Positions 338 to 63,847 are shown, counted from the stretch's first letter. The stretch: DNA of 64,000 bases from Methanobacteriota archaeon (GCA_020696385.1 JAEHCQ010000001.1:224001-288000), one strand, 5' to 3'. Made by a program: numbers and translations. The notes: generated by a model not told the origin, from the sequence alone.

Positions 338-427
338 GGAGAAGGGGTATGTGAATGAAGTGAATATGTTTTTTGGAGGTTTATTATGTGGGGTGTGGCA
401 GTGTGGAATGGGGATTTGTTGTGTGAG

Positions 428-652
428 GTGTGGATAAGGACCCCGCCCATCGTTCTTAGTTCGAATCGCTTTGCGTCTCGAACTAATGATTTGCGAAATT
501 TACGCAAATCAGGACTCCTGGCGGGGCTTGGTTTGACCACTCGCTCTGAACGCGAGTGGATAATTCTTTTGCAGAATCATCGCTGGTCACCCACATCGCT
601 AACACATCAGGTACCCCGACCCTGCGTCTCTCGGGTCGGGGCATGCTCGCAT
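428..652 (-). repeat. Structured intergenic element, copy A (family with 41423-41551 and 48562-48737)
   Basis: Blocks shared with copy C (gtgtggataa.gaccccg.ccatcgtt; ggggctt..tttgac; gcaga..catcgctg) and with copies B/C (taccccg...cggggcatg); multiple hairpins. Confidence 0.8.
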
Positions 653-805
653 GATCATCGCCCTGTTGAGAATATGCCTTGTATGTTCTATGCCCTGGTG
701 GTACATCGCGCCCGCCAGCCAAAATAATGCAGGTATTTCCCCCACCTCGAATAATTAAAGAATGCACCCGCCCTCTAGATACGATGAGTATAAGGTGTGC
801 TCAAT

Positions 806-41388: not shown

Positions 41389-41422
41389 GATCAGTCCTTC
41401 GTGTTTATGGTTTTAGAAAGAT

Positions 41423-41551
41423 GGACCTCCCCGCCCTTTGGACGGGGTTTCGAATCAGAAGCACTCTAGACTGTCACTCACTGAGTCATCACTGAGAGTA
41501 CCCCGCCCGCACACTGTCAATATACTGTGTTTAGACGGGGCATGCTCGCAT
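41423..41551 (-). repeat. Structured intergenic element, copy B (short, IS200/IS605 end-like)
   Basis: Minus strand GCGAGCATGCCCCGTCTAAACACAG...GCGGGCGGGGTA ... GAAACCCCGTCCAAAGGGCGGGGAGG. Confidence 0.75.
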
Positions 41552-41575: not shown

Positions 41576-44500
41576 TTATAATATGCTGGACAGATGCTCC
41601 TTCATCCTATCCAGATACTCTTTTCTCTCTTCCAGCTGCTTCTCCTTCTTCGCAATGTCAGCTTCCTTTTTCTTCAATTCCGCATGGAGCTCGTCGGTCT
41701 TTTCCTTGGTCGTCGAGTGGGACTTCTCCTTCTTGGCCAGTTCCGCTTCCTTCTTGACCATGTCCTTCTCCAGGTTTTCGAGCCGCTTCTGTTCTTTTTC
41801 TATCGACTTGCGCTCGGTTTCCAGAGTCTTTTCGACCCGGGACCTGATGATATGCTCCGCATCTATTGCTTTTTGAGATTCTATCTCGATCTGCTTCCAG
41901 ACCTCGGCGGATTCCTTCTTCTCCGCCATCAAGGCTTCCAGCTCGGTGGACAACTTCTCCGCCTTCTTCTGAATGTCATCTTCCCTGGTCCTGTGTTGTT
42001 CGTTTATCAGCAGGATCTCTCTCTCGCGCTTGGAGATATCCTCTTCCCTGGCCTTGAGATTGGTATCCAGTTCTTCTTTGACCGAGGCCAGCTCATTCTT
42101 TTCATCTGTCAGTTTCTTCAGAAGATCCTCATTGCGCTTCTGCTCCACGGTCTTGGCGTATTTCATCAGTGAAAGAGCGGATTGCTTCATGTCATCCAAT
42201 TCGCCACGCTCTTCCTTGAGCATCTGCATTTCCGCATCCCGCTTATCCATCTCCTCTTCCAGCAGGCGCTTCATCCTATTGAGGTCGGATTCTCTCTCCC
42301 TCAATTCCTTCTGCTGGCGCTCGATCTCCTTCATCCTCTGTGGCAGGTCGCCTTTCAATGTCTCCAGCTTGTCCTGCTCCTCGCGGATGTTCTGCATCTT
42401 CTGGGCGAGCTCGACCTCCATCTGATTGAGATCGGCCTCATGGGATGCCAATTCATCTTCTCTGCGGATCATGATCTCCGCTCTGATCTTCAATTCCTCG
42501 GTTTCCTTAGCGATCCTTTCGATATTGTCGCCAAGATCCCTCTCTCTCTCGGCCAACTCGTCATATTTGTAATTCAATTCTGTTTCTTCCACCTTGATCT
42601 GGATGCCTCTCTTCTTTATCTCCTCGGATTTCTTTTCCAGGTCTCTATCAAGGTCCTTTTGTTGCCGTTCCTTCGCCTCGTGCCTCTTGGTTTCCTTGCC
42701 AAGGTCTTTCCACACCTTGTCCATATCATCCTTTTGGCTTATGAGGCGAGTGTTCTCGTCAGTAATTTCTTTCTCTTTCTCTTTGAGGCTGGCTTCCTTT
42801 TTCTCCAGAGATAGTTTCGTGCTTTCGATCCTCTTTTCTCTCTGGATTATGTCAGCTTCCTTTATCGTGAATTCGGATTGTCTATCAGAAAGGTCTTTGG
42901 AGTCCTCATTGACCCTTTCCTCTTCCAGCCTGGCTGTTTCCAGTCTCTTATCGATCTCCTCTTCCTTGATAGATAGATCCTCCATCCTTCCAGCAAGCTC
43001 TCCATCCAGCTGAGCCAGTTCCTTGTTTCGGAGATCAATTTCCTCGGATCTCCGGCTCACCTGACGTTCCCTCTCCTTCAGCTCGATATCCGCTCGATGA
43101 AGGGCATCCTGTTGTTCTGTGAATTCGCTTTCCTTGTTCGATCGTGACTTTTTGAAATCATTGAGGTCGTTCTCATACCTCACTTTCTTCTCTTCAAGTC
43201 TGGTAAGATTAGCCTCATATTTTATCTCCCTTTCCCTGAGTCCGGAATCTGCCTCATTGATAGCATTCTCCCTCTGTTTGAGTTCCTTCTCTTCCTTTCC
43301 GATCTCCAGCTTCCTTTGCTTGTAGGCCTCGATATCCTCCACGAGGTGCTGCCTTTCCTGGGCCATCCTGTCCTTTTCCTTCTCAAGCTCATTCTCCTGG
43401 TTCTTGAGCATTATTTCCATCTCGCCCAGGACATTGTCCCTTTCATCCGCCCCTTCGACCTGCATGTCCAGCTCTTTCTTTCGAGATTCCAGTTCCTGTT
43501 CCAGGGCCTTGAGCTCGGCATCTTTCTCGGACAACTCCAAGGATAGGGCATCATACTTCTCGGATAGCTCTGTAGATAGAGCATCGTGCTTCTCAGATAG
43601 CTCTGCAGATAGTAGCGTATGCTTCTCTGATCTATCGGACAGGTCAGCCTCCAGGCGTTCCAATCGCCTGGATTCCTTGTCCAGATCGCTTCTCTCCTTT
43701 CGCAATTCCTTGTCAGTGATCTTCAGGTCAGAATCCTTGGTCGCGAGCTTTTCTTCCTTCTCATTGAGCTTGGCCTCAAGCTTATCAAGCTTAGTGGCCA
43801 GCTTCTTTTGTTCCTTGACTTCTGCGTCATGGACTTCCTTCTTTTCTTCCAGGTCCTTCAGTTGATTTGAAATTTCCTCGCGCTTGGCAAGGATCTCGGC
43901 TTCCTTATCACCGATCTCGCCCTTGGACAGGGTTATGCCTTCTCTCATATTCTCCAATTCTTGCCATTGCTCATCAAGGTCACTTCGGCTCTCCGTGAGC
44001 TCCCCCTCTTTGGTATCAAGGGTTTCCTGGAGTTCCTTAAGATCGGCTTCCAGTCGGCCTTTTTCTTCCTCGAATTCCTCCCTGTCGGCGATGAGAAGCT
44101 GTATATCGGAATCGATGTTCTTTCTCTCAGTAGCGATCTTCTTCTCTCTCTTTGCCATGGATTTTTCATTGGCTGTCAATTCTTCATGGCGTGTGGAATA
44201 ATCCGCCTCGTTCTGCTCGTATTCCGCCATATTGGTAGCCAGGATCTTTTCCCTTTCTTCAAGTTCGATCTCGGACGCGGAGATATGGTCTTTGGATTCC
44301 GCAAGGTCTGAATTTAATTTCTCTATCTCCGAATCCTTATCCGCGATGGTCGTGTCCAGCTCGGCGATCCGGTCATTTGTTTCAGTCAATTCTGCTTCAA
44401 GAGAAGATATCTTCTCATTCACATCGGACTGGCCATCAGCAAGCTCTTTCTCCTTGCCCGATACACGCTCGGACTCCTGGGCCAATTCATCCTTTGCCTT

Positions 44501-45964
44501 TTCAAGTTCGGATTCCCGGGATTCAAGGTCAGCCTTCAGGCCTTCCTGTTCCTCCTTCAGTGCTTGGAGTTCCAATTCTTTTTCTTCCAGAGCCTTGGAA
44601 TTGTCAGCATGTTCAGCTAATTTGGATTCGAGTTCCTTTGTTCTCTCGGCCAGATCACTTTCAAGATCAGCGAGTTCCTTGGATCTGGTATCCAATTCAC
44701 CCTTTGTTTTGCTAACATCCTTTTCAGTGGACTCGAATTCCGCTTTCTGGGCATCCAGTTCGGACTTGAGGGATTCGAGTTCACCCTCAAGATCCTTTGA
44801 TCGTGATTCCTGTTCTTTAAGAGCCTTTTTGAGATCAGCCTTTTCATTACTTGTTTTGGCCTTGACCTTGTCCAGCCCCTCAATATCCCCTTCTAGAATT
44901 GAAATTCGGGCGTCAGATTCTTTATTTATTTCTTCAAGTTCATTGTACTTCTCTTCCAATTCCTCTTTATCTTTCTTCAGCTTGTCGATCTCCTTTTCAA
45001 GAGATTTCTCCGCCTTGCCTCGGGATTTCTTATCATCTTCCAGCTTCTGCTGGCCATCTTCAAGCTTGGATATGCTCTTTTCAAGGTCTGATTTTTCCAT
45101 ATCAAGCTTCTTATATGCTGCCCCAAGGTCCACAAATCTCTTTTCAAGGTCAGCTTTCTCATCTTCGAGGTCTTTGATCTTCTTTTCGGATTCTTTTTCC
45201 TTACCCTCTGATTCCTTGAGCTTATCCTGGCCTTTCTCCAATTTGGATATCTTTGTCTCAAGATCCTTCTTCTCATCATCCATCTGGGATATCTTGGCCT
45301 CAAGTTCTTCAGCCTCTTTCTTGAACTTTGATAGGTCCTCGGCCTCTTTCTTTTTGGCCTCCAGTTCGCCTGTCAAAGCCTTTATCTCATCATCCTTAGC
45401 TGATATCTGATCCTGTATCTCTTTATTCCTGGCGGCTTCCTTTTCTTTAGCCTTTTCCATTGCCTGAGATAACGAATCTGTATCCATTTCAGCGGCTGGT
45501 TTGGGAGCCACTGGCTCAGGCTCGGGCTCTTCCTCGACAACAGGTTCTTCCTTGGATTCCTCTTTGGCCTTAGGCTTCTTCTCAGGGGCTTTGGGCTTGG
45601 GTTCTTCCTTTGGTTTTGGTTTATCTTTAACCTTGTATGTTGGGATCTCAACTTTGTCCATGATCTGAGAGGTTATATCCACCATCTCGCCAGCATCTTC
45701 TTCACTATCATCATCGGTGATATTCGGATCTTTGAGATTGGTTCCACAAGAAAAGCAAAGTGCGGAATCTCCACTGTTAATCGCACTGCAGTTAGGACAA
45801 TGGATCTCGCCCACTGCCTCTTCAATGACTTCATCTTCGGCTGGTGGTTCATCAATTATGGCAGGCTCTTCAATAATAGGCTCTTCGGGAGGAGATTCCT
45901 CTATAACTACAGCCTCTTCCGGCTTCTCTTCGAGAGATTTCTTTGCCTTGTCCCTTAATCCCAT
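41576..45964 (-). CDS. Giant coiled-coil protein with N-terminal zinc ribbon
   Basis: CPNC...CFSC, then about 1300 aa of E/K/L/R-rich heptads; no Walker A, hinge or TM. Confidence 0.85.
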   Translation of the reverse strand: MGLRDKAKKSLEEKPEEAVVIEESPPEEPIIEEPAIIDEPPAEDEVIEEAVGEIHCPNCSAINSGDSALCFSCGTNLKDPNITDDDSEEDAGEMVDITSQIMDKVEIPTYKVKDKPKPKEEPKPKAPEKKPKAKEESKEEPVVEEEPEPEPVAPKPAAEMDTDSLSQAMEKAKEKEAARNKEIQDQISAKDDEIKALTGELEAKKKEAEDLSKFKKEAEELEAKISQMDDEKKDLETKISKLEKGQDKLKESEGKEKESEKKIKDLEDEKADLEKRFVDLGAAYKKLDMEKSDLEKSISKLEDGQQKLEDDKKSRGKAEKSLEKEIDKLKKDKEELEEKYNELEEINKESDARISILEGDIEGLDKVKAKTSNEKADLKKALKEQESRSKDLEGELESLKSELDAQKAEFESTEKDVSKTKGELDTRSKELADLESDLAERTKELESKLAEHADNSKALEEKELELQALKEEQEGLKADLESRESELEKAKDELAQESERVSGKEKELADGQSDVNEKISSLEAELTETNDRIAELDTTIADKDSEIEKLNSDLAESKDHISASEIELEEREKILATNMAEYEQNEADYSTRHEELTANEKSMAKREKKIATERKNIDSDIQLLIADREEFEEEKGRLEADLKELQETLDTKEGELTESRSDLDEQWQELENMREGITLSKGEIGDKEAEILAKREEISNQLKDLEEKKEVHDAEVKEQKKLATKLDKLEAKLNEKEEKLATKDSDLKITDKELRKERSDLDKESRRLERLEADLSDRSEKHTLLSAELSEKHDALSTELSEKYDALSLELSEKDAELKALEQELESRKKELDMQVEGADERDNVLGEMEIMLKNQENELEKEKDRMAQERQHLVEDIEAYKQRKLEIGKEEKELKQRENAINEADSGLREREIKYEANLTRLEEKKVRYENDLNDFKKSRSNKESEFTEQQDALHRADIELKERERQVSRRSEEIDLRNKELAQLDGELAGRMEDLSIKEEEIDKRLETARLEEERVNEDSKDLSDRQSEFTIKEADIIQREKRIESTKLSLEKKEASLKEKEKEITDENTRLISQKDDMDKVWKDLGKETKRHEAKERQQKDLDRDLEKKSEEIKKRGIQIKVEETELNYKYDELAERERDLGDNIERIAKETEELKIRAEIMIRREDELASHEADLNQMEVELAQKMQNIREEQDKLETLKGDLPQRMKEIERQQKELRERESDLNRMKRLLEEEMDKRDAEMQMLKEERGELDDMKQSALSLMKYAKTVEQKRNEDLLKKLTDEKNELASVKEELDTNLKAREEDISKREREILLINEQHRTREDDIQKKAEKLSTELEALMAEKKESAEVWKQIEIESQKAIDAEHIIRSRVEKTLETERKSIEKEQKRLENLEKDMVKKEAELAKKEKSHSTTKEKTDELHAELKKKEADIAKKEKQLEERKEYLDRMKEHLSSIL

Positions 45965-48545: not shown

Positions 48546-48561
48546 GATTTTTGTCAAGCTG

Positions 48562-48737
48562 GGTGTGGATAAAGACCCCGGCCATCGTTGAACTCCAACC
48601 GGGGCTTAATTTGACTCATCGCTTTGAAAGCGATGAGGCTATCTTTTTTGCAGAGACATCGCTGTCACTTGCTGAGATAAAGAATATATTACCCCGCCCG
48701 CACAATGAGAATACACTGTGTTTAGACGGGGCATGTT
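48562..48737 (-). repeat. Structured intergenic element, copy C
   Basis: Collinear with copy A; one hairpin nearly identical to copy B (accccgcccgcaca...actgtgtttagacggggcatg). Confidence 0.8.
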
Positions 48738-51217: not shown

Positions 51218-54200
51218 ATGTTAGGAGATAGAGCAGCAAATATGGGCAAGTTGATAGTTATCATTTTGAGTTTGATGATGGTGATACCATTTACCAACTT
51301 TGAAACATCAGAGAACGTAAGTGCGGGAGAGGTACTCACTGACATAACTGGAGCGACCAGAGCACATGGATTGGGTTATGACGGTAGTGGAATTACCATA
51401 GCGGAATCAGGTACTGGCCTTGATACAGGGGACAATGCCACCCTATTCATGGAATTCGCAGGGAGAGTTGACCATTGGGTTGACTGGACCGAAACAGACA
51501 CATCAGATGGAGTGGCTGAGGATTCATATGGTATGAGCACTCCATTTTTCAGCTGGATGGTTGGAGATGGATCCAGTGGTCAGTTCGATCCTGTTGATGG
51601 GAAACTCTACGGCATGGGCATGGCACCCGGAGCCCGCATAGTGAACGAGCGGGTCTTCGGCGATGGTGCAGCATGGTTCAATGGAGATATCGCGGATGTC
51701 TTTACGGATGCCAGCGAGAAAGGTGTCTTTGCTTTGACGAATTCATGGGGAGGCGGGACCATATACGAATATGCTCTCAATTCCAATAAGGTAGATACAG
51801 CAGCTAGAGATGCACAACCTGCAGTGCCAGGGGATCAGCCACTTCTCAACTTCATGGCCTGTGGCAACAATGACCTAATGGAAAGTGCCTGTGCCAAGAA
51901 CGGGATAACCATAGCTGTGGGCGAAGGATACAAACCTCACAAGAGTCTGGATGCAGATAATATTGAAGAGCTATGGGGAACTTCCGCAAGCGGATTTACA
52001 GCTGATGGAAGGATAAAACCAGACATAGCAGCCCCAGCCACATGGGGTGCTGGTGTGACCTCTCATGTTCCAGGTGCAGTCACAGGGCAAGAGGCGATAA
52101 ATGCAGATTATCAGTATAACAGTGGTTCAGGAGGCTCTGCAGCAATTGGCTGTGGTGCATCCGCAGTCTTTGCTCAGTATTATAATGATATAAATGGAGC
52201 CATACCAAGTCCAGCAATGACCAGAAATGCCATGATCAATGGAGCAACTGATATGGGAACTGCCGATATTCCGAACGCTGACGAGGGGTGGGGCAGATTG
52301 AACCTGACCAATATGATCCAGCCAGGATTCGATATTTATTATGATGATCAGAATATTCTTCTTGAGACTGGAACCAGCCAATTGTATGATACTATCTTCA
52401 TCAACAGTGTCGCACAGCCATTGAAGATCTCTTTGACATGGACAGACGTAGCCGCACCCTCGAACACAAATGCTGGAAAGGCCCTGATAAATGATATAGA
52501 TATGACAGTTATCTCTCCAAGTGGCCTGGTATACAGCAGTAACCTGTTTGTCGGGGGATGGTCAATAGCCTCCATACCATTGACAGACACGGCCAATAAT
52601 GTTGAGTGTGTCTATGTCCAGGCACCCGAGATCGGCCAGTGGAGGATATACGTCAATGGAACAGACATCCAGCAGGACTCTGTCTCAGCTACACCAGCTA
52701 CCGACCAGGACTATGCCCTCGTGGTAAGCGGAAGCTTCGATATTGGTGGCGGGCCAGTTGCCTCTGGGTATGCTGATCCCAACCCAACAAATGGCGCAAC
52801 CACCACAACAGTTTACACATCTTTCTCCGACATACAAAACGTGGTAGATGCAGAATATTTCATTGACGCTGTAGGAGCGGATGGAACTGGCACTTTGATT
52901 ACACCAACGGACGGAGCCTATAACAGCCCCAATGAGGACGGATATGCCGCAATAGACATATCTGCTGAAGGCTGGCTACCTGGAGAGATCCATACGATCT
53001 ACGTGCATGCACTGGATTCAGATGCCAATTGGGGAAATATCTATTCCATCACCATATACGTGGGTACTCAATATTACCTACACGTGGAGAACTCGATAGG
53101 ATCGGATTTGAGCCTTCAGAAGATCGAACCCGATCAACCAGTCGTGGTCTGGACCACGACTGGAGCAGTACCGGCACCCGGGCAATACCAAATAGGAACT
53201 GTTGCCTGGATGACAGATGCATATGCACAAGACACAGATATTGGGGGTGACTGGCATTTCTTCATAGATGGCGGTATCACCACAGATGATATCTCAGGAA
53301 CCCTGTATGCGAAGGTTTACGAGTATGGCACAATGACATTGCTTAATCCAACACCAACGCAATGCTCGACCGATGTAGCTGGCAGATATCCAATAATGGA
53401 ATTCACCTGGACAGATACCATACCTGCGGCCACAATATCCGCAGGTGATCGTGTATTTGTTGAGATCTGGCTGGATGCAACTGCGGGAGGGGGCGGAGCA
53501 GGCTCTTCTACCTATGATTACGTAGGAGATACAGAGGCAACACCTCCAGATTATGGATATTTCATGGACACTAACTCTTGCTCACTGGGGACTGGTCCAG
53601 ATTACAACTCGGCTCCTGAGTTCACCGATGCACAGTACATATCTGCATCGACCTCGAATGATAACTGGGCTGTCTCTGTTGATCCTGGCAACCAGGATGA
53701 GATATTCATATGGAACTCGATGGAAGTGCTGGACGATCCAGCTTATATCACCCAGATAGACCTTACCTTTGAAGGACAGGGCGATGATGACAGTGATTTC
53801 CAGATATGGGTGGAGAGACAGGCAGGAGGTGCATACTGGGAGACCGTTGGCACCAGCATGTTCGCCTCTGCCAATACAGACATAACCTTGACGAGAAGTA
53901 TAACTGTTAACCCTGGCGATTATATTGCCAGTAATAGAATAAGATGGGGTGTTTATGAGACCACATCGAGAATGGTGGTGAGTGCTGACCTTCTGGAAGC
54001 TGTTGTGCATTATGATAAGCCAGCTCCAGAGTTCATGCTTGGTTATGACAATGATTCGACACCATCAAGATTGATAATCCCTGAGGCTTCAGGGATTATC
54101 ACACCGGGGCCTGATCCATACAATATAACCATATCCGACCCGGCAGGTCCATGGCCAGCCTGGAGGTTCATTTCCTTCCCAACAAGCATCAGTGTTTCAG

Positions 54201-55384
54201 CGGCCACGATCCTGGATGATTCACTCCATGCATGGGGAGATGCGGGGATCACATGGGATGAATTGAAATGGTATGACCCTACAGACACCACAAGGCACTG
54301 GAAGACCTTCAATAAGGATTTCCCAGGAGCACCGAGCATGCCAGATCTTGACAATACCATGGGTCTATGGATACACATCACTGGCAATACGGGTGACCAA
54401 TACCTGACATTAGGTATTAGCGGTGACGATCCTCTCGATGCGGAGTTCATGCTATATGCTGGCTGGAATCTAATTGGATATCCATCACTCACCCCACAGC
54501 TGGCATCCGACACCTTGCCAGCTCAGGTGACGAAGATGGCATATTATGACATCGCCCAGCCCTATACGATCACGGATACTGTGGCACTCGACACGGTGAT
54601 GATGGCAGAAGGAAATGCATACTGGGTCTATTCAGCCTCCGATGTATTGTGGCAGGTGGATGCTCCAGCAGTTGTTCCAGATCCATACCCCGTAGTCGGA
54701 GTGGTACAACTTTATGATGGATGGTCCGGCGGCTTCTACAATCCAATGACATCCAGTGGAGGAGCCACTGTCGATGTGACATGGTTCGACAGAGGCCTGG
54801 GAGCGTGGAACACGATCTTCACAGTCACCAATGCTATTGGCCAGTACAGCGTGGATATCACGAATTACTGGGATGGCGATGTGGTATTCGTCAATGCCAC
54901 CTTCGATGCCACATACGGCAATAATGGCTACAATTACACCTATGTCAATGTAGGTATGGGTATGTCCATGCAGAATGTGGTTTGCGGTGTTCCTTATCAG
55001 CTTATGATCATCAATCCCATGGACGGTAGCTTCCAAACAGCAGGAGTTCCCTTCCCGGCGGAATATGTATTCCTGGACATAGATGGGATGATAGCACAGG
55101 GTTATTTCGAATGGGGTGATGGATTGATGGACTGGTATTCCAGTGATCCACTATTTGTCTCACCCGTACCTGGATTACCTTTCGATGGAACCAATAGTAT
55201 GTTCCCTGGAATGGGAGGTGCTACCCTGACCCTCTGGAACTTTGGCTTCCAGACCATCGAGATCTACGAGGGCTTCCCCCCAGGAAATAATTACCTAACA
55301 CCATGGGGAGAGTTCTACACAGATCCTGCTGGAACCATACCAGGATGGATGTCTGACTGGAGTATGATAATGGTCATGGTCTAA
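51218..55384 (+). CDS. Secreted S8 subtilase homologue lacking the catalytic triad (pseudoprotease)
   Basis: TNSWG, DGRIKPDIAAP, EGWGRLNL scaffold intact; Asp/His/Ser replaced; no prodomain. Confidence 0.85.
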   Translation: MLGDRAANMGKLIVIILSLMMVIPFTNFETSENVSAGEVLTDITGATRAHGLGYDGSGITIAESGTGLDTGDNATLFMEFAGRVDHWVDWTETDTSDGVAEDSYGMSTPFFSWMVGDGSSGQFDPVDGKLYGMGMAPGARIVNERVFGDGAAWFNGDIADVFTDASEKGVFALTNSWGGGTIYEYALNSNKVDTAARDAQPAVPGDQPLLNFMACGNNDLMESACAKNGITIAVGEGYKPHKSLDADNIEELWGTSASGFTADGRIKPDIAAPATWGAGVTSHVPGAVTGQEAINADYQYNSGSGGSAAIGCGASAVFAQYYNDINGAIPSPAMTRNAMINGATDMGTADIPNADEGWGRLNLTNMIQPGFDIYYDDQNILLETGTSQLYDTIFINSVAQPLKISLTWTDVAAPSNTNAGKALINDIDMTVISPSGLVYSSNLFVGGWSIASIPLTDTANNVECVYVQAPEIGQWRIYVNGTDIQQDSVSATPATDQDYALVVSGSFDIGGGPVASGYADPNPTNGATTTTVYTSFSDIQNVVDAEYFIDAVGADGTGTLITPTDGAYNSPNEDGYAAIDISAEGWLPGEIHTIYVHALDSDANWGNIYSITIYVGTQYYLHVENSIGSDLSLQKIEPDQPVVVWTTTGAVPAPGQYQIGTVAWMTDAYAQDTDIGGDWHFFIDGGITTDDISGTLYAKVYEYGTMTLLNPTPTQCSTDVAGRYPIMEFTWTDTIPAATISAGDRVFVEIWLDATAGGGGAGSSTYDYVGDTEATPPDYGYFMDTNSCSLGTGPDYNSAPEFTDAQYISASTSNDNWAVSVDPGNQDEIFIWNSMEVLDDPAYITQIDLTFEGQGDDDSDFQIWVERQAGGAYWETVGTSMFASANTDITLTRSITVNPGDYIASNRIRWGVYETTSRMVVSADLLEAVVHYDKPAPEFMLGYDNDSTPSRLIIPEASGIITPGPDPYNITISDPAGPWPAWRFISFPTSISVSAATILDDSLHAWGDAGITWDELKWYDPTDTTRHWKTFNKDFPGAPSMPDLDNTMGLWIHITGNTGDQYLTLGISGDDPLDAEFMLYAGWNLIGYPSLTPQLASDTLPAQVTKMAYYDIAQPYTITDTVALDTVMMAEGNAYWVYSASDVLWQVDAPAVVPDPYPVVGVVQLYDGWSGGFYNPMTSSGGATVDVTWFDRGLGAWNTIFTVTNAIGQYSVDITNYWDGDVVFVNATFDATYGNNGYNYTYVNVGMGMSMQNVVCGVPYQLMIINPMDGSFQTAGVPFPAEYVFLDIDGMIAQGYFEWGDGLMDWYSSDPLFVSPVPGLPFDGTNSMFPGMGGATLTLWNFGFQTIEIYEGFPPGNNYLTPWGEFYTDPAGTIPGWMSDWSMIMVMV

Positions 55385-55415
55385 GGCCATAGTTTGAATA
55401 TCGAACATCTCCAAA

Positions 55416-55441
55416 AGGCTGGCTATCTACCGGCCAGCCTT
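55416..55441 (+). terminator. Hairpin followed by T-tract
   Basis: AAGGCTGGC...GCCAGCCTT, then TCTCTTTTTT. Confidence 0.55.
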
Positions 55442-55601
55442 ATCTCTTTTTTACCATATACCTCTGGTAAGAATGAAATGATCTTAGCTTGATAAGCAAT
55501 ATACAATTTGAATACAACAATTGTAACAATATGCATCAATGCAACAATAGTATGTATCAATATGTGGGATTAGTATTATATAATTAGCAATCATTAAACT
55601 T

Positions 55602-58600
55602 ATGGAAATAGTGGAGATGAAATTGATGGAAATAATGGGCAACAGATTTTTGGGCTTGATATTTATAGCTGTGATATCAATTAGTTTACTGATACCAGCA
55701 AGCTCGATCACTTTAGCAGATGTGAGCACGGATGATGGATATTTCTTGGTTAGTTTTTCAGAATTACCAAATGCCGACCAGAGGAATTTCATAGAGAGCT
55801 CGGGTATCGAATTCCTGAACTACATGAACGATGGTACCTATCTGGTCAAGAGCAATGGAAATATACTATCCAATGGGCCTCTTATGGCTTATTCAGATGG
55901 TTTTCAACCATATACCGCTTCAATGAAGATCAACCCAGATCTGAATGGAATGTCTGGCATGACCAATGTCATAGTGGCTCTGCATGAAGAAGCAGGAATA
56001 CCCGGAGCAATAACATCTTTAGAAGAATTGGGAGCCAGTGATATCAAGATCAATACAGGTTCCTTCGCATACCTAAGATGCACGATTGACGCATCCAGGA
56101 TCAATTTGATCGCAGATATCCAAGAGGTCAGCGTTGTTGGCCATGATGCTGAGCCAGTGGCCTTTATGGATCTAATTACATCCAATACATTCATGGGACA
56201 GGATACCACCGAGGCAGCGGGATTCACCGGTGCAGGTATACTGGCAGAAGTTCAGGACAATGGAATAGACATTGGCCACCCGGATCTCGCCAATGTCATA
56301 TACACAGATGGATCTGTATCGGATGATGATCATGGCACCTGTACCTCAGGTATCGTCTTCGGAAATGGAGATGGTGATATCAGAGCACTTGGAATTGCCT
56401 ATGAATCAGTCGGAGTTTTCTCGGACTGGGGAACTGGAAGATACACTTCCATTGAAAATCTCTGGAATGGTGATTTCAATGAAGGAAGTGCCGGGATGAA
56501 CGGTGTCGTCCAATCAAATTCATGGAGCTCCGGAACACAGGATGGACTTTATCAGATAAATGCTGCAGCGGATGATCAGGCAGCAGTGGATTATCCAAAA
56601 GTTCTATCTCTCTGGGCAAACGGTAATGGCAATGATGGGACCGCAGAGGGGGATCTCAGCGAGGATGCCTGCGCCAAGAATGTCATGGCAATAGGAGCGA
56701 TATTCCATAAGGACACCGCGAACATGGTGGATGATGAGTGGCTTTTGCAATCTCAGGGAAATACACCTTCAAGAGGCCCAGCCGCAGATGGTAGACAGAA
56801 GCCAGAGATGTGCGCGCCCTTTGACTGGATCTACACAGTGGACAACAGGGTCGGTGGCTATGCCACTGGTGATTATTATGATAATTTCGGCGGAACAAGC
56901 GGCGCGACGCCCATCGTAGCTGGCTCAACCGTAATCGCCTATGATATGTGGCAGGCGGATTTCTTTGATACAAATCCAACAGGAGAACTTCCTTATGCAA
57001 GCACGATGAAGGCCCTCATGGTGGCCGATGCACATCAATATGCATTGACAGAAGCAACAAGGAATGAACAGGGCTGGGGCACACCAGACATGGAGAACAT
57101 GTATAATCGTGGAGCTGATTACCACCAGATAGATGAATACCCACAGGCATTGGATTCTGGCGATATGTACAGCCGCCAGGTATTCAGTGATGGGACACTT
57201 TCTCTGAAAATATCACTTGCCTGGACAGACCCTGCCGCACTTGGGACCACCAATGCAGCCAGGGCATTGATCAATAACTTAGACCTGAAGGTCATATCAC
57301 CAGGCGGTGTGGAATATTATGGTAACAACGGCCTATGGACAAGCCTTTACTCCGCTTCCGGAACTGGAGCGAACCAGTGGGGCTCGGATCACAGGGATGA
57401 CCTGAACAATCTGGAAAATGTATTCATCGAGAACCCACAAACCGGTATATGGACCATCGAAGTATATGGACGAACTGGGGACATCGCTCAGGGACCACAG
57501 GATTTCTCAATTGTAGCATCAGGTGGAAAGATACCAATTACATCACAAGGAATGATCCAGCTGGATGCGGAGATATATGCTGGTGAGGACTCAGCAACTA
57601 TCACGCTCATGGATTCTGACCTTAATACAAATACAAATTCAGTAGAGACCAAGATCATCAATGTGGACAGTGATTCGGAACCAGTAGGCGAAAATATTCT
57701 GTTGACAGAAACTGGTCAGGATACTGGCATGTTCGAGGGAACATTAACATTATCAGCGACAAACTCAGCCGGAGTTTTGCAAGTATCGGATGCTGATACC
57801 ATTACCGCGACCTACAATGATGCAGATGATGGATCTGGGCCTGCCACGGTCACAGATACAGCCATCATAGATGCAGGAGTAGCAGCGATCAGTGGATTGA
57901 CAGTAGAATGGTGGGGATTGACTAATACAGAAGACATGGCATCTGATGTCTCTATCGTAAGGGGAACTGAGGTCAATGATCTCTCATTCACCTATATCCA
58001 GGATGATTCATATCATCAATTGGTGGAAGTAACAGCAGGTGGCGGTGGCAGGAAGAATCTTGATTTCCAATACACCATCAATATAGATCCAACCGGAGTT
58101 GGGCCCTACACCATCTACATGGATTCATACACGACAGGCGAAGCTTTTACAGCAACCTACAGCACCAATGGAGGAGCAAATTGGGGATCATTAGGTGTCA
58201 TTACAGCGACCTCTGATACAGATACATACGATGTTTGGCCAATAACAGCCAGTGCTGGAGACGAGGTTCTTATTGATATAACCGGAACCACTCAATCTGG
58301 AGAAGTTGTCGATCAGCTTTACACGGATCATCTTTTCATATTGGGTGGAAGTGCAAGCAACCCAACCGACCATAACACACTCAACTGGACATTGTCCGGA
58401 GATGATGGTGCAGGAGCAAATGATGTAATCCAGTACAATATTTACAGAGCCAATAATTCAGTTGGTCCATGGGGTGCAGGATTTTACATAGACAGTGTAC
58501 CTGCTGGAGAATCCACATACACGGATATTGACAAAGGAATCCCAGATGGGATCCAGTGGTGGTACGTGGTCAGAGCTGAAGACCTTCTAACCAATGAAGA

Positions 58601-59507
58601 TACCAACACAATTGCAGTGCCAGAGCCCGGCTCAGTACCCGATTCGGCACCGATCTCTTCAGCATCCTACGCTGGCGCGTCACCAACATCCAATAACCCG
58701 GTTACGATTAATTGGGCAGCCGCTGATGACAATGACCTAATACAGGTCGAATTGTTCTACAGACATGATGGTGGAGCATACGCATCTTGGACAGACGGCA
58801 CCAACCCGGCAACTGCGACAGGAACCGCGGACAGTGGTTCCTGGAGCTTTGACTTCCCGGATGGAGCTGGAACATACGACTTATACACCAGAGCGTCGGA
58901 TGATATGCCACAGACTGAGACCGCACCCGGATCACCAGATGTCACTATCCAGTATAATCCAGTACAGAATTATGACTTTGACCTTGCTGGAGCATCAGAT
59001 GGTTCATGGATATTTGTATCATTCCCATTGGATATAACGGGAGATGTCCTGACCATCATAGATGATGCGACATGGGGAGATGGCGACACGACCTGGGAGG
59101 TCATCCACTGGTACAACCCGAGTGAGGTAGATCATTGGAAGACCTATGACAAGGCACAGGCAGCAGCTGGAATAACCCAGGATATGCCGACCATTGACAA
59201 TTCCATGGGAATGTGGATAAAGATCACAACCTCTGGAACTGTATTGACAGCTGGAGAGGGATTCGAATCTGCAAGCACGAACATCGATCTAAAGGCTGGT
59301 TGGAACCTTGTTGGTTACCCAGCACAGGATGATTCAACCTACGATGTGAATGACCTGATAGCCGCAACTGGAGCGACCAAAGTTGAGGGATATGGAGGTG
59401 CTGGACCTTATGACATCTCGGCTCTGGGAGGGAATTATATCCTACAGCGTGGAGAAGCCTACTGGATCAATGTGCCAGCAGACATAACCTGGACTGTCAA
59501 CTGGTAA
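55602..59507 (+). CDS. Secreted S8 family serine peptidase (start uncertain, 55602-55635)
   Basis: Signal peptide, prodomain, VQDNG, DHGT, GNG, GGTSGATP; FN3/Ig-like and C-terminal GWNLVGYP domains. Confidence 0.92.
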   Translation: MEIVEMKLMEIMGNRFLGLIFIAVISISLLIPASSITLADVSTDDGYFLVSFSELPNADQRNFIESSGIEFLNYMNDGTYLVKSNGNILSNGPLMAYSDGFQPYTASMKINPDLNGMSGMTNVIVALHEEAGIPGAITSLEELGASDIKINTGSFAYLRCTIDASRINLIADIQEVSVVGHDAEPVAFMDLITSNTFMGQDTTEAAGFTGAGILAEVQDNGIDIGHPDLANVIYTDGSVSDDDHGTCTSGIVFGNGDGDIRALGIAYESVGVFSDWGTGRYTSIENLWNGDFNEGSAGMNGVVQSNSWSSGTQDGLYQINAAADDQAAVDYPKVLSLWANGNGNDGTAEGDLSEDACAKNVMAIGAIFHKDTANMVDDEWLLQSQGNTPSRGPAADGRQKPEMCAPFDWIYTVDNRVGGYATGDYYDNFGGTSGATPIVAGSTVIAYDMWQADFFDTNPTGELPYASTMKALMVADAHQYALTEATRNEQGWGTPDMENMYNRGADYHQIDEYPQALDSGDMYSRQVFSDGTLSLKISLAWTDPAALGTTNAARALINNLDLKVISPGGVEYYGNNGLWTSLYSASGTGANQWGSDHRDDLNNLENVFIENPQTGIWTIEVYGRTGDIAQGPQDFSIVASGGKIPITSQGMIQLDAEIYAGEDSATITLMDSDLNTNTNSVETKIINVDSDSEPVGENILLTETGQDTGMFEGTLTLSATNSAGVLQVSDADTITATYNDADDGSGPATVTDTAIIDAGVAAISGLTVEWWGLTNTEDMASDVSIVRGTEVNDLSFTYIQDDSYHQLVEVTAGGGGRKNLDFQYTINIDPTGVGPYTIYMDSYTTGEAFTATYSTNGGANWGSLGVITATSDTDTYDVWPITASAGDEVLIDITGTTQSGEVVDQLYTDHLFILGGSASNPTDHNTLNWTLSGDDGAGANDVIQYNIYRANNSVGPWGAGFYIDSVPAGESTYTDIDKGIPDGIQWWYVVRAEDLLTNEDTNTIAVPEPGSVPDSAPISSASYAGASPTSNNPVTINWAAADDNDLIQVELFYRHDGGAYASWTDGTNPATATGTADSGSWSFDFPDGAGTYDLYTRASDDMPQTETAPGSPDVTIQYNPVQNYDFDLAGASDGSWIFVSFPLDITGDVLTIIDDATWGDGDTTWEVIHWYNPSEVDHWKTYDKAQAAAGITQDMPTIDNSMGMWIKITTSGTVLTAGEGFESASTNIDLKAGWNLVGYPAQDDSTYDVNDLIAATGATKVEGYGGAGPYDISALGGNYILQRGEAYWINVPADITWTVNW

Positions 59508-59523
59508 GCGAGCGAAAGCAAAA

Positions 59524-59547
59524 TGAGAGAGCTTTCGGGCTCTCTCA
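59524..59547 (+). terminator. Hairpin with TTCG loop
   Basis: TGAGAGAGCT-TTCG-GGCTCTCTCA, then T-rich; identical at 63870. Confidence 0.65.
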
Positions 59548-59743
59548 AATTTTACATTTTTTATCAAATATTATATCGTATTTATCACGTAATTTAAAAA
59601 GTTATATATACTACATACCAAAAAGCTTAACTATAAATAAATCGATGTGGAATTACAAACATATATACAAATATATACAAAGATCGTTGGAGTGATGTGG
59701 GCAACATTCACTTTATCGTTGGAGAGAATGGAGGAATTCTAAA

Positions 59744-62700
59744 ATGGATAAAATTAGTAACAACTATGTGGGCGTGTTATTATCAATATGCGTAGCTATT
59801 TTTATGTTGATACCTGCTGGAGCAGCAACATCTAGCATGGAAACAGAGGCATTTCAGGGAAAGGAGCATTTCATAATAAATGTGTATGAGCCAGTTGATT
59901 CAAGCTGGATAGATGTATTGGATCAAATGGGCATACAGACCGTGACATACCTTCCAGAAAAAGGATATGAGGCTTTCCTGACATACGACCAGATGGCTCA
60001 GGCAGAGGAACTTGACTTTGTAAAATGCATCAATGAATATCCTGTAGAAGACAAGATCTCAGAGTATCTGGAGGGAGATGAGGTCATCATATCCCTTGTG
60101 AATGCGGGATCGATGCCCAGCAGTTTGCAGGCGATATATGGTCTTATGGATGTATTTGATGAGGATGATACTGCCGCAGGGCACATCATAAAAGGAAGAA
60201 TACTCAATATGAATGACATTAACATAATAGCTGGCTTGGCCGATGTACACTTTATAGAGACCTATTTCCCAGAGCAACTACATGGTGAAATGGGTACCCA
60301 GATCCTCGGTGGCGGTCTATGGCTTTTTGATGATGATGCAGACACGGACACACCGTACAGGGCATTGGGCAACTACGGCTCGCACGTTAACCAGCTTGGA
60401 TGGACAGGTGAAGGCGTAAGAATTGCCATCGCGGATACTGGCGTTGGTGACGGGACCACTGGAGATTCCGGCCACAATGATTTTACCGGACGTGTAGTCG
60501 GAGGTTATGATTTCGGAACTGGTGGCTGGCAGGACAACCACGGCCACGGAACTCATTGTATCGGCCTGGCAGCTGGTGACACCTACAACGGAAACGGTGT
60601 TACTTATGGTGGTTTCGGTCCGTATTATGTGGGCCAGGGACAAGCTCCGGACTCGACAATATACGTTGAACAGATCTTCGAAGGTGCTTCAGGTTCATGG
60701 GTCGGACCAGCAGATTACAGGCAAATCCTTTACGAGAATGGCGGGTCTCAGATCCATACTAATTCCTGGGGTGCGAATACCGGCGGAGCCTACTCTGCAG
60801 CAGACGAGGCTTTTGATGAAGCAATAAGGGATTCAGACGGCGACCCCGTAAACGGAAATCAGCAGATCGTAGTATTCACATCTGCCGGAAATGCTGGCTC
60901 AGGTTTGAATACTATTGGAAGCCCTGGAAATTCCAAGAATATTATAACTGTCGGCGGCACTCAGAACTACGCGCCCGACAGCAGAACCTACGGCGCCGAT
61001 GAATATTCTATTACTTCCATTAACCCGGACACGATGTATTCCAGCAGTTCCAGGGGTTGGACCGATGACGGCCGAATAAAGCCGGACATCGTGACGCCTG
61101 GCCAGAACACATTGTCTCTCAGCAGTCCTCTGGTCGTTGATGGTCTATTCGGTGATTATTCTCAAGATTCACGATACACCTGGTGCACGGGAACAAGCCA
61201 GTCATGTCCGCAGGGAGCCGGTGGAGGCGCTGTAGTATATGGATGGTATCAGGATCCATCAAATTATGGTGTTGAACCAACACCAGCTACCGTAAAGGCA
61301 TTGTTGATCAACACTGCTGTGGACATCGCAACAGCCGACATACCCAATCAGAATGAGGGCTGGGGCAGAATGAACATAATGCCCATAATCGATCAACCAG
61401 CTCCTTTCATGATATTCCAGGATCCCAGTGAGCTGATAACTGATGCCATAGATACCTACACATTCAGCTATGTCAATCCCGCAGAGCCTGTAAAGATCAC
61501 ACTGGCCTACACCGACAGATTCGCTCTGAGCGGCGCGGCAATCACGCTTCAGAACCAGGTCAATTTGGAGGTCGAGTCACCTACTGGCACGATCTACCAC
61601 GGCAATGCTTTCAGCGGTGGATGGTCCACCACTGGCAACCCAAGCGCAACATTTGATACCAATGCTGACGGGTATGATGACAGGAACAATGTGGAATGTG
61701 TTTACCTCAACACTGGCCAGATGGAGATAGGCCAGTACACGGTCAGAATAATAGGAACCAGTGTTCCGGCAGACTGTGACAATGACGGATCCAATGACCA
61801 GGACTATTCACTGGTCATGTACAACTGTGAGGACGTATCAGCCAGGGGAACCGTTGACTTGGATCAGAACGTATATGCTGGAGAAAATTTAGCCACCATA
61901 ACAGTTAGCGACACTGACCTCAACACCAATGGCCTTGTCCAGCAGACCACCATAACTGTAACATCAACATCTGAGCCTGGTGGAGAGAGCGTTACATTGA
62001 CCGAGACCGGTGGCGACACCAGTGTCTTCGTTGGAACACTTACTCTTTCCCAGACCAATGGAGCGGGAATTCTTCTGGTATCACACGATGATGTGATAAC
62101 AGCGACCTATAATGATGCGGATGATGGTACTGGCTCATCCCAAGTGGTGACCGATACCGCGACCGTGGATTCGGGAGTAGCTCCCACCAGCGGACTTACC
62201 GTTGAATGGTGGGCGCCTGCGGCTGGCTCGACCGAGACAAGGTTCATGAGATCGGACGCGGCAACTGTGAATGGATTGACGGGTGATTCCCTCGGAACAT
62301 CACAGAGTGCGGTCACTCAGACAGTGACATTATCAAGTACCAGTACGATCTTTTCAGGAATAAGTGTGTTCTCACGCTCTAGTGGAGGTGCAGAAACCCC
62401 AATATCATCTGGTATCGTCGCTATAGCCAGCACAGGCGGTACAGAAACAGTGAGCGCGACCTGGGATTGCCCACAGACCACAATATCAGACACGGATTCA
62501 ATTGTTGTCAAATGGTATTGTGGTGGAACCAATCCACCTGCCACACTGGTGGAGACCTTCACGACCGAGGTACTGGGTGGAACGCAACTTAGTGCGGCTA
62601 CCTGGACATTCTATTCATACTTATCAGAGAGGAATAATGCAGATAGAGTTTCCTGGGGATCCGCCACCGCTAACACCAGAATAGAGGGATTCACCTGGGC

Positions 62701-63847
62701 AGCCTTTTCCAATCCACTTGAGCATAATACCCTCAACTGGACATTGTCCGGAGATGATGGTGCAGGAGCCAATGATGTAGTAGGTTACAATATCTACAGA
62801 GCTCCCGCTTCAGGCGGACCATGGACGAACATAGACACTGTGCCAGCTGGTACAGGCACCTACACGGATATTGACCGTGGAATGTCAGATGGAACACAGT
62901 GGTGGTATATTGTAAGGGGCGAGGATGGAGCTGGCAATGAAGATACAAACACAAACGCAGTGCCAGAGCCCGGCTCGGTACCAGATTCTGCACCTGTTTC
63001 ATCAGCAGGATATGCTGGCGCGTCACCAACATCCAATAACCCGGTTACAATTAGCTGGACCGCGACAGATGACAATGATCTCACACAGGTCGAATTGTTC
63101 TACAGACATGATGGTGGAGCATACGCATCTTGGACGGACGGCACCAATCCAGCAACTGCGGCAGGAACCGCGGACAGTGGTTCCTGGAGCTTTGACTTCC
63201 CGGATGGAGCTGGAACATACGACTTCTACACCAGAGCGTCGGATGATATGCCACAGACTGAGGCCGCACCAGGATCACCAGATGTCACTATCCAGTATAT
63301 CCCGATACAGAACTACGACTTTGATCTTGCAGGAGTATCGGATAACTCGTGGATATTCGTGTCATTCCCACTGGATATGACAGGAGATGTTCTGACCATC
63401 ATAGATGATGCGACATGGGGGGATGGCGACACGACCTGGGAGGTCATCCATTGGTACGATCCAACAGATGTCGATCACTGGAAGACATATGACAAGGCAC
63501 AGGCAACTGCTGGATTGGCACAGGACATGCCGACCATTGACAACTCCATGGGTATGTGGATAAAGATCACAACTTCAGGAACAGTATTGACAGTTGGAGA
63601 GGGATTCGAATCTGCAAGCACTGATATCACTCTGAACGCTGGCTGGAACCTCATTGGTTACCCAGCACAGGATGATTCGACCTACGATGTCGGCGATCTG
63701 AAAGCAGACACTGGAGCGACCATGGTAGAAGGCTATGGTGCAGGACCGTACAATATCGTTACACTGGCGAACAATTATGTCTTGCAACGTGGCGAAGCGT
63801 ACTGGGTCTTTGTCGGAGTCGGCGGAACCTGGACTGTCAATTGGTAA
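59744..63847 (+). CDS. Secreted S8 family serine peptidase
   Basis: IADTG, HGHGTH, SAGN, TGTSQSCP; same C-terminal architecture as the upstream paralogue. Confidence 0.93.
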   Translation: MDKISNNYVGVLLSICVAIFMLIPAGAATSSMETEAFQGKEHFIINVYEPVDSSWIDVLDQMGIQTVTYLPEKGYEAFLTYDQMAQAEELDFVKCINEYPVEDKISEYLEGDEVIISLVNAGSMPSSLQAIYGLMDVFDEDDTAAGHIIKGRILNMNDINIIAGLADVHFIETYFPEQLHGEMGTQILGGGLWLFDDDADTDTPYRALGNYGSHVNQLGWTGEGVRIAIADTGVGDGTTGDSGHNDFTGRVVGGYDFGTGGWQDNHGHGTHCIGLAAGDTYNGNGVTYGGFGPYYVGQGQAPDSTIYVEQIFEGASGSWVGPADYRQILYENGGSQIHTNSWGANTGGAYSAADEAFDEAIRDSDGDPVNGNQQIVVFTSAGNAGSGLNTIGSPGNSKNIITVGGTQNYAPDSRTYGADEYSITSINPDTMYSSSSRGWTDDGRIKPDIVTPGQNTLSLSSPLVVDGLFGDYSQDSRYTWCTGTSQSCPQGAGGGAVVYGWYQDPSNYGVEPTPATVKALLINTAVDIATADIPNQNEGWGRMNIMPIIDQPAPFMIFQDPSELITDAIDTYTFSYVNPAEPVKITLAYTDRFALSGAAITLQNQVNLEVESPTGTIYHGNAFSGGWSTTGNPSATFDTNADGYDDRNNVECVYLNTGQMEIGQYTVRIIGTSVPADCDNDGSNDQDYSLVMYNCEDVSARGTVDLDQNVYAGENLATITVSDTDLNTNGLVQQTTITVTSTSEPGGESVTLTETGGDTSVFVGTLTLSQTNGAGILLVSHDDVITATYNDADDGTGSSQVVTDTATVDSGVAPTSGLTVEWWAPAAGSTETRFMRSDAATVNGLTGDSLGTSQSAVTQTVTLSSTSTIFSGISVFSRSSGGAETPISSGIVAIASTGGTETVSATWDCPQTTISDTDSIVVKWYCGGTNPPATLVETFTTEVLGGTQLSAATWTFYSYLSERNNADRVSWGSATANTRIEGFTWAAFSNPLEHNTLNWTLSGDDGAGANDVVGYNIYRAPASGGPWTNIDTVPAGTGTYTDIDRGMSDGTQWWYIVRGEDGAGNEDTNTNAVPEPGSVPDSAPVSSAGYAGASPTSNNPVTISWTATDDNDLTQVELFYRHDGGAYASWTDGTNPATAAGTADSGSWSFDFPDGAGTYDFYTRASDDMPQTEAAPGSPDVTIQYIPIQNYDFDLAGVSDNSWIFVSFPLDMTGDVLTIIDDATWGDGDTTWEVIHWYDPTDVDHWKTYDKAQATAGLAQDMPTIDNSMGMWIKITTSGTVLTVGEGFESASTDITLNAGWNLIGYPAQDDSTYDVGDLKADTGATMVEGYGAGPYNIVTLANNYVLQRGEAYWVFVGVGGTWTVNW

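Follow-up and report, generated by a model that had tools for sequence, protein, structure and literature searches.

The 64,000-nucleotide (nt) stretch of DNA considered here, called the window (Methanobacteriota archaeon, GCA_020696385.1 JAEHCQ010000001.1:224001-288000; G000:C11:224001-288000 in the genome and contig labels used below), contains three related intergenic elements, A, B and C, each of which is read on the minus strand just downstream of a minus-strand gene. All three are members of a repeat family, non-coding, modular and rich in hairpins, of which at least 45 copies are interspersed in the genome of this uncultured member of the Thermoplasmata, a 2.28-Mb assembly of 50 contigs with a completeness of 94.5%. 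The genes upstream of A and C encode TruD (PF01142, 448 bits) and ribosomal protein L15e (PF00827, 278 bits), as the initial annotation had it, whereas the open reading frame (ORF) of 1462 amino acids (aa) upstream of B (window 41576-45964, minus strand), which it had described as a giant coiled-coil gene, matches no Pfam family at E ≤0.001.

Hairpin Elements of the Window

The elements open with the pattern CATGCCCCG-N10-40-CGGGGTA, which forms the hairpin termed H1, and each is closed by a second CCCCG...CGGGG hairpin. This opening pattern has three matches in the window, all on the minus strand (the H1 rows of Table 1), compared to a mean of 0.00 in 100 dinucleotide-preserving shuffles of the same sequence. 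The places, the two-hairpin design and the arms quoted in the initial annotation (CCACTCGC/GCGAGTGG in A vs. CTCATCGC/GCGATGAG in C; CCCCGCC/GGCGGGG vs. CCCCGGT/GCCGGGG) were all found again, while the true cores proved to be slightly wider than had been proposed. A and C are indeed collinear over their full length, apart from an extra 57 nt in A; B has only the 5′ half and the hairpin design in common with them and carries the tail GGGGAGGTCCATCTTTCT where A and C have GGGGTCYTTATCCACACC. The core boundaries, set by conservation profiles together with pairwise comparisons and good to a few nt, lie at CATG (within a few bases) on the 5′ side and at ...AACAAAY (type I, see below) or ...CTAAAC (type II) on the 3′ side. 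No oligo-T terminator was seen after the hairpins of A, B and C.

Table 1. Elements A, B and C and their parts (window coordinates; R1 is the covariance model described in the text).
Feature	Position	Strand	Sequence and remarks
Element A, type I core, 232 nt including the nested 57-nt insert	414..645	-	CATGCCCCG to ...AACAAAT; R1 124.6 bits
Optional 5′ leader of A	646..678	-	GGCATATTCTCAACAGGGCGATGATCATGCGAG; partial copy of the leader hairpin module GCATAT...ATATGC
Hairpin H1 of A	612..645	-	CATG-CCCCGACCC-GAGAGACGCA-GGGTCGGGG-TA; helix 1 of the consensus structure
Hairpin H3 of A	537..559	-	CCACTCGC...GCGAGTGG; helix 4, 98.6% paired, 3 pairs changed on both sides
Hairpin H4 of A	441..526	-	CCCCGCC...GGGCGGGG; helix 5; loop split by the mini-element
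Nested 57-nt two-hairpin mini-element	455..511	-	TGATTTGCG...CGCAAAT / TTAGTTCGA...TTCGAACTAAG; within the loop of H4
Type I 3′ tail of A	414..440	-	TCCTTATCCACACC TCACACAACAAAT; conservation stops 13 nt past CACACC
Element B, type II core, 142 nt	41403..41544	-	H1, GAGTGACAG box, short terminal hairpin, tail GGAGGTCCATCTTTCTAAAACCATAAAC
Hairpin H1 of B, long tip	41499..41544	-	TCTAAACACAGTATATTGACAGTGTGCGGG; pattern match
Terminal hairpin of B	41429..41447	-	CCCCGTCC-AAA-GGGCGGGG
Element C, type I core, 187 nt	48549..48735	-	R1 150.1 bits; orthologous copy in G002
Hairpin H1 of C	48690..48735	-	pattern match
Hairpin H3 of C	48615..48637	-	CTCATCGC...GCGATGAG
Hairpin H4 of C	48576..48604	-	CCCCGGTTGG...CCGGGG
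Type I 3′ tail of C	48549..48575	-	TCTTTATCCACACCCAGCTTGACAAAA

Family Size and Modular Architecture

That many more copies would be present genome-wide, as three in 64 kb had suggested, was borne out: 43 loci were found in G000 by single-sequence nhmmer and 45 by profile nhmmer, and the same profiles gave 29 loci in the 1.57 Mb of sequence of the closest congener, G002, that was used for comparisons and searches. The elements measure 120-290 nt overall and their cores, from CATG to the tail anchor, 119-254 nt; by a crude ORF call, a frame of at least 150 aa overlaps one locus only, on the opposite strand. The copies of G000 with both anchors are of two types, 18 of type I, which end in GGGGTCYTTATCCWCACC + CAGCWTAACAAAY and to which A and C belong, and 16 of type II, which end in GGGGAGGTCAATCTTTCT + AAAATCCTAAAC and to which B belongs; the 5′ hairpin is common to both types and the 3′ tail is different.

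From 5′ to 3′ an element consists of an optional leader hairpin (GCATAT...ATATGC), H1, a linker, H3 (in type I), H4 and the tail. The leader module is present in many type I copies, and that of A falls outside the common core in pairwise boundary comparisons. H1 is preceded by an invariant CATG and combines a constant base with tips of at least four kinds, the shortest of 10 nt and the longest of ~130 nt; the linker carries TACTATATTC and the box GAGTGACAG. Several variants of H3 occur in type I, among them CCTCGC/GCGAGG and CACTCGC/GCGAGTG, and the H3 loop sometimes contains a hairpin of 40 nt. H4 has the same stem as H1, CCCCGYC/GRCGGGG, both hairpins being in direct orientation, and a loop GA...GCAG is common to some copies. 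Between the left boundary and the 5′ hairpin there are at most ~5 nt, and at the other end a conserved tail of 27-31 nt follows H4.

When 5′ anchors in G000 were combined with 3′ anchors up to 450 nt away, non-coding elements alone emerged and no autonomous copy of greater length, the unpaired anchors being chance matches in coding sequence or one solo tail. This solo tail, of type II (GGGGAGGTCAATCTTTCTGTAAT), is located at C48:3774-3791 (minus strand) directly after the stop codon of a gene, without hairpins, and may be a remnant or else a tail motif in use by itself. In the flanks of 52 copies no inverted or direct repeat signal was detected (mean best local score 7.9 for inverted vs. 8.1 for direct).

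The 57 nt nested in A are themselves a repeat, with 11 copies, 5 of them in G000 (window 455-511 on the minus strand, C11:77828-77882, C11:577156-577210, C47:89654-89708 and C48:3093-3144) and 6 in the G002 sequence. This mini-element is built of two different hairpins, with two compensating variants, and inserts at the loop apex: 10 of the 11 copies are in the loop of an H1 or H4 and the eleventh is in a hairpin of another repeat. In the orthologous pair C44:179146 / G002:C28:168492, its presence in one copy is the sole difference. The mini-element shows neither obvious inverted ends nor an obvious target duplication.

Strand-Specific Fold

The covariance model R1 was built from 17 canonical type I copies (172 positions, 33 pairs) and scanned over G000, G002 and their relatives. 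Standard pairs occupy 94.6% of the 1023 cells in an alignment of 31 type I copies from G000 and G002 (E ≤1e-15), which was itself fitted to the model, compared to 41.5-52.1% when the partners were slid by 1-3 columns; column shuffles of the alignment gave 87.5%, and none of 500 reached the observed value. Eleven pairs were changed on both sides (60 cells), with inherited changes counted repeatedly, vs. 2-4 pairs (2-17 cells) in the slid controls, so that the covariation proposed from the comparison of A and C holds for the type I family. In H3, which is 98.6% paired, CG, UA, AU and GC were all seen at two positions. In the 13 type II copies examined the helices are invariant, and therefore this type contributes no covariation. 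A possible long-range pairing (GUG/CAC, helix 2) is predicted to join the GUGACA box to the tail.

The aligned copies contain 102 G-U or U-G cells (71 without one invariant pair) and only 8 A-C or C-A cells. Therefore the strand that folds is the element-sense strand, i.e., the minus strand in the window, either as RNA or as single-stranded DNA (ssDNA), in agreement with the initial annotation. No described Rfam family accounts for the structure: at gathering score, the only match of Rfam 15 in the whole window is tRNA-Pro, and below threshold the best score on A, B and C is ≤15.4 bits (E ≥0.52). Readings of individual motifs made by eye (C/D-box, H/ACA, hammerhead, promoter, Shine-Dalgarno and terminator) were dropped, since the motifs are not common to all copies; the Rfam matches do not exceed 15.4 bits.

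Gain, Loss and Module Exchange Between Congeners

The elements come and go between species of the genus. Of the 45 loci of G000, 21 could be placed in the G002 sequence, 14 with a partner and 7 empty; conversely, 23 of the 29 loci of G002 were placed in G000, 14 with a partner and 9 empty. Pooled, 44 syntenic sites were compared, between species and not strains, and 16 of them hold no element in the partner genome. The check at orthologous loci for which the initial annotation had called thus shows that presence is not fixed, which supports mobility. Several "empty" sites hold unrelated or remnant sequence, and one (C33:175320-175407 vs. G002:C22:214861) resembles a deletion remnant. In addition, contigs of the metagenome-assembled genomes (MAGs) break inside copies, as dispersed repeats would cause.

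Site A, which lies between truD and the ribose-5-phosphate isomerase gene, is in a different state in each congener. In G002 it holds an element with another H1 tip and another H4, without the 57-nt insert; in G001 the element is inverted and the contigs break inside it; in G003 there is a 204-nt spacer without an element. Site C is occupied in G002, and at B the synteny with G002 is lost downstream of the neighboring gene. A further difference at site A was noticed when G002:C34:25258-26368 was compared with window 338-805: an extra ORF of ~220 aa, absent from the orthologous spacer of G000, is situated between truD and the element.

Where orthologous copies exist, they are often composed of different parts. 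In 9 of the 14 orthologous pairs identity falls below 72%, owing to differences of whole modules; the flanking genes are 74-95% identical. In a terminal-only derivative (G002:C11:758953) H1 is fused straight to the type I tail. The most similar pair of copies within a genome is also mosaic, with H1 identical over ~130 nt and ~85% identity in the remainder.

Position Relative to Genes and Distribution in Relatives

The elements prefer the 3′ flanks of genes. By gene orientations that rest on crude ORF calls, the spacers occupied in G000 are 19 convergent, 17 tandem and 5 divergent (2 unscored), against a genome-wide baseline of 217 convergent, 605 tandem and 245 divergent among 1067 spacers; convergent spacers are therefore over-represented (46% vs. 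20%). Within tandem spacers 14 copies are sense and 3 antisense (binomial p = 0.013). Of 20 copies from the sister family f4, 11 lie between convergent and 2 between divergent genes, and in tandem spacers 1 is sense and 4 are antisense (2 unscored), so the sense bias is not replicated there (1:4; combined 15:7, p = 0.13).

By BLAST, the family was found in 3 of 3 congeners and in none of 27 other relatives. R1 reached further within the order: each of the 4 congeneric genomes gave 17-40 hits and the sister genus gave 2; counted by taxonomic family, hits were present in 4 of 4 genomes of f1, 11 of 13 of f4 and 0 of 4 of f2 and f3. The f4 hits are weak (2-22 per genome, 28-40 bits), yet on inspection these copies are homologous (...CATGCCCCGCC-TGTG-AGGGCGGGGTAC...AGTGACA...CCCTGCC..GGGCAGGG...). 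Within one Thermoplasmata order, the repeats thus persist in two families. When 121 genomes were sampled across the class, 9 had a match at E ≤1e-5, none of them among the 111 genomes of the 27 other families. Among genomes chosen as one per species, an exact 22-mer of the type I tail was restricted to three MAGs, whose titles read "Thermoplasmata archaeon" or "Methanobacteriota archaeon". A scan of metagenomes with the H1 pattern gave 8 loci, 3 of which match R1 and none of which has cargo; the same scan of viral contigs gave 41 loci, none with an R1 match, and these are therefore chance pattern matches.

Likeness to Known Transposase-Free Repeats

With modest confidence, the family is best described as non-autonomous, palindrome-associated mobile DNA, an orphan variant of elements such as the palindrome-associated transposable elements (PATEs) of archaea and REP (repetitive extragenic palindromic) repeats of bacteria. 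The PATEs of Haloquadratum walsbyi, as they are outlined in the report of Dyall-Smith et al. (2011; PMC3119063), encode no transposase, lack inverted terminal repeats and target duplication, and have similar palindromes near both termini. They form heterogeneous families that include terminal-only derivatives, and small repeats (SMR-A) insert into their palindromes. The same outline states that the PATE ends are shared with resident IS605/IS1341 (tnpB) transposons and that the 5′ palindrome has the longer distance to its end.

Most of this anatomy recurs here, so far as that outline goes. The ORF-free cores of 119-254 nt are too short for a transposase gene; the 52 copies, with boundaries known to a few nt, display neither inverted terminal repeats nor target duplication; and the near-terminal palindromes H1 and H4 resemble each other in their stem. 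The family is mosaic and heterogeneous, with a terminal-only derivative that resembles a repeat-mediated core deletion, and a small unrelated repeat inserts into its near-terminal palindromes. Copies are numerous although intact IS200-type transposases are few or lacking, and insertions are species-specific, 7 of 21 loci of G000 and 9 of 23 of G002 being empty in the other genome. Four features differ: no link to resident IS605-type ends was found, since tnpB was not detected and the flanks of tnpA are unrelated; the 5′ hairpin abuts the left boundary, the reverse of the PATE distances; the nested element has 57 nt and two direct hairpins, unlike SMR-A with ~110 nt and inverted terminal repeats; and the host is an uncultured Thermoplasmata lineage, not Haloquadratum. 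No prior description in Thermoplasmata was found in the literature, ISfinder and supplements being outside the scope of that search.

The likeness to REP sequences, bacterial interspersed mosaic elements (BIMEs) and REP doublets forming hairpins (REPINs) lies in GC-rich extragenic palindromes with a fixed short tag, mosaic with other modules, in the enrichment at gene 3′ ends, in tens of copies and in long persistence in a lineage. The present elements, with 120-290 nt and two to four different hairpins, are unlike REPs of 20-40 nt or their inverted doublets. The ends of IS200/IS605 transposons are comparable in having imperfect direct hairpins near the ends, a strand-specific fold and neither inverted terminal repeats nor target duplications; unlike them, the elements enclose no transposase and have no orientation bias relative to GC skew. 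A conserved target tetranucleotide could not be made out.

On these analogies we infer an ssDNA mechanism driven by an HUH enzyme. The element would move as one folded single strand, and an enzyme specific for hairpins (HUH/Y1-type), provided in trans, would recognize it at H1 and H4. Copies would survive mainly where they are harmless, between convergent genes, and many may be co-transcribed into 3′ untranslated regions (UTRs). As to the proposal of a non-autonomous ssDNA mobile family in the initial annotation, gain and loss, PATE-like anatomy and the lack of an ORF speak for it, but its tnpA or tnpB partner was not found.

Search for a Mobilizing Enzyme and Other Points Against Mobility

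One may ask which enzyme could act on these hairpins. Most of what was found in answer, together with several properties of the copies themselves, weighs against the mobile reading. The TnpB domains PF07282 and PF01385 have no match in G000 (94.5% complete). The sole Y1 transposase gene of this genome (C50:2010-2357) encodes a canonical IS200 TnpA (NF033573, 119.5 bits), not a REP-associated tyrosine transposase (RAYT; model NF047646, 28.2 bits, cut-off 80). The flanks of tnpA carry another hairpin, with TCCGCATT..AATGCGGG downstream, and R1 detected no element within ~1.5 kb of the gene in 8 loci (best 12.8 bits, not significant). TnpA of G000 shares 66% identity with the protein of G002 but 80% with that of G001, a more distant species, and its presence does not track the repeats, f2 and f3 having TnpA (4 of 4) without repeats. 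Because no elements are nearby, the hairpin is different, the identities do not follow the relatedness of the species and the gene occurs without repeats in f2 and f3, the resident IS200-type TnpA is a weak candidate mobilizer.

The copies add further points of this kind. There was no recent burst, as the two most similar copies within a genome share 92% identity over 218 nt. Exact filled/empty joints between G000 and G002 could not be defined, the spacers being too diverged, nor could a conserved target motif of 4-5 nt, the bases before CATG being weakly conserved. Orientation shows no replication-strand bias, the element strand being G-rich in 23 cases and C-rich in 20 (local 60-kb windows), a weak comparison in that GC skew in G000 mainly tracks gene strand. 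Besides the PATE distances noted above, the hairpin-to-end distances in IS608 are the reverse of those seen here. Finally, constraint on the fold at single loci is weak: in the 5 of 14 orthologous pairs that could be aligned, substitutions affect 12.0% of positions paired in the minimum-free-energy structure and 15.2% of unpaired ones, and 16 changed pairs stay paired while 33 break.

Y1 genes are present in 18 of 31 relatives, mostly as a single copy, and the ~1 gene per genome in most genomes of the order recalls REP/RAYT systems. In the account of PMC6006769, however, RAYT subclasses are reported only in Bacteria, and TnpA here is IS200-type, without flanking repeats and with a tree that is not species-like. 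TnpA as a vertically inherited, domesticated partner was rejected, given its IS200 class, the pattern of 66 and 80% identity and a rearranged neighborhood. The locus itself (C50:1200-2400) is placed beside tRNA genes, which ARAGORN calls Phe(gaa) or Leu(cag), of 87-90 nt; in G000 the 3′ end of tnpA is partially duplicated after the gene, together with a tRNA-like fragment, and partial second Y1 matches adjoin the full gene in G011, G014 and G015. The locus may represent a hot spot for integration or else a tandem insertion that has decayed.

The longer copy with tnpA, tnpB or iscB that the initial annotation had suggested looking for was not encountered in G000, in the 8 metagenome loci or in the 41 viral loci. 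Reverse transcriptase (PF00078) has no match in G000 either, which speaks against a SINE-like retroelement.

Alternative Readings

A possible but less probable explanation is that the elements are primarily functional structured RNAs, either 3′-UTR modules that stabilize or process upstream mRNAs or a multi-copy non-coding RNA, whose spread would be secondary; H1, the GAGUGACA box, H3/H4 and the tail would then form an RNA domain used by the host. The strand-specific fold with its excess of G-U over A-C (102 vs. 8), the covariation in H1, H3 and H4, core motifs conserved across two families of the order and the predicted GUG/CAC pairing from the GUGACA box to the tail are all consistent with it, and 34 of 42 loci in G000 lie downstream of a co-oriented gene, with the sense excess in tandem spacers (14:3) already given. 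This excess, however, is not reproduced in f4. A function bound to particular genes also agrees poorly with 16 of 44 empty sites, with orthologous copies that differ by whole modules in 9 of 14 pairs and, in the 5 pairs that could be aligned, with rates of change at paired positions only a little below those at unpaired ones, and neither an Rfam family nor an oligo-T terminator was found.

More speculative is an archaeal counterpart of the REPIN-RAYT system. Such a structured non-autonomous replicator would have been inherited largely vertically since before the split of the two families and copied by an enzyme other than a recognizable resident transposon; its folded core (the CATG-hairpin, the GUGACA box, the second hairpin and the CACC tail, folded as RNA or ssDNA) would be recognized by a host or element factor, and it would now serve the host at gene 3′ ends. 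A role as RNA at these 3′ ends is possible. We regard this combined proposal as doubtful.

It is improbable that the elements are immobile, ancient and conserved signals in intergenic DNA (sites of protein binding or recombination, for example), which diverge, are lost by deletion and are homogenized by gene conversion. The failure to find a transposase partner, the ceiling of ~92% on within-genome identity, the exchange of hairpin modules at orthologous sites and the one "empty" site like a deletion remnant would all agree with such signals. Nevertheless, site A is inverted in G001 and replaced by an unrelated 204-nt spacer in G003, 45 dispersed copies adjoin unrelated genes, the mini-element is cleanly present or absent within near-identical orthologous hairpins, and MAG contigs break inside copies.

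A derivation from the omegaRNAs (or reRNAs) of TnpB/IscB transposons, i.e., scaffolds left after loss of the nuclease gene, had been raised in the initial annotation and is very improbable. Like omegaRNAs, the elements are structured, multi-copy and similar to transposon ends, their fixed 3′ tail could precede a guide, and PATEs carrying omegaRNAs are described from Geobacillus in the account given in PMC10055086. The TnpB domains, however, are not found in G000, and PF07282 exceeds its cut-off in only 1 of 22 genomes of the order (G009, of f3), itself without element hits; the proposed origin is therefore without support. Rfam searches at gathering and E-value thresholds returned no curated omegaRNA-type family, no protein-coding cargo stands beside H1 in the 8 metagenome loci, and the search for the IscB RRXRR domain was uninformative, its control being silent. 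Classical cut-and-paste miniature inverted-repeat transposable elements moved by a DDE transposase are as hard to credit, for despite small size, intergenic position and presence/absence polymorphism, the 52 copies have no terminal inverted repeats or target duplications, the terminal hairpins are direct, not inverted, and DDE_Tnp_1 has no match in G000 (other DDE families were not searched).

Other Repeats and Open Reading Frames

A second intergenic repeat of ~100 nt (CCCACCCC..(CAATTG)..CCCCCCACCC..GCTCCT..CTGG..CCCCC..CCTGCTCGGAG) was recognized by eye in about a dozen copies among 62 pattern hits, 5 of which are within 400 nt of an element of the main family. Its sites in G000 include C11:489482, C11:572461, C22:239687, C22:273027, C44:4888, C44:65647, C44:137991, C44:179594 and C44:206788. 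A third, short repeat (...CTTTTGGAG..GAGC....AAAAGAAAAGGCTTACGTGGGGA) recurs in the upstream flanks of elements and beside the tnpA locus (e.g., C11:636885-637014 and C50:1560-1700 in G000). The window also contains three consecutive large ORFs of 1388, 1301 and 1367 aa (51218-63847, plus strand).

Significance

Transposase-free hairpin repeats are well studied in bacteria, as REP, BIME and REPIN sequences, and in archaea they have been described in halophiles, as PATEs. The family described here occupies ~45 spacers of an uncultured Thermoplasmata genome, where it is parasitized by a 57-nt mini-element and where no matching transposase was found. For practical purposes, the repeats break MAG assemblies, so that masking or annotation is advisable, and R1 is a specific lineage marker, with 0 of 111 class genomes outside f1 and f4 matching. 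If the elements are mobilized in trans, they would point to an unrecognized hairpin-specific pair of enzyme and substrate in archaea; if they are instead kept for a role as RNA, they would represent a new multi-copy 3′-UTR structure of archaea.

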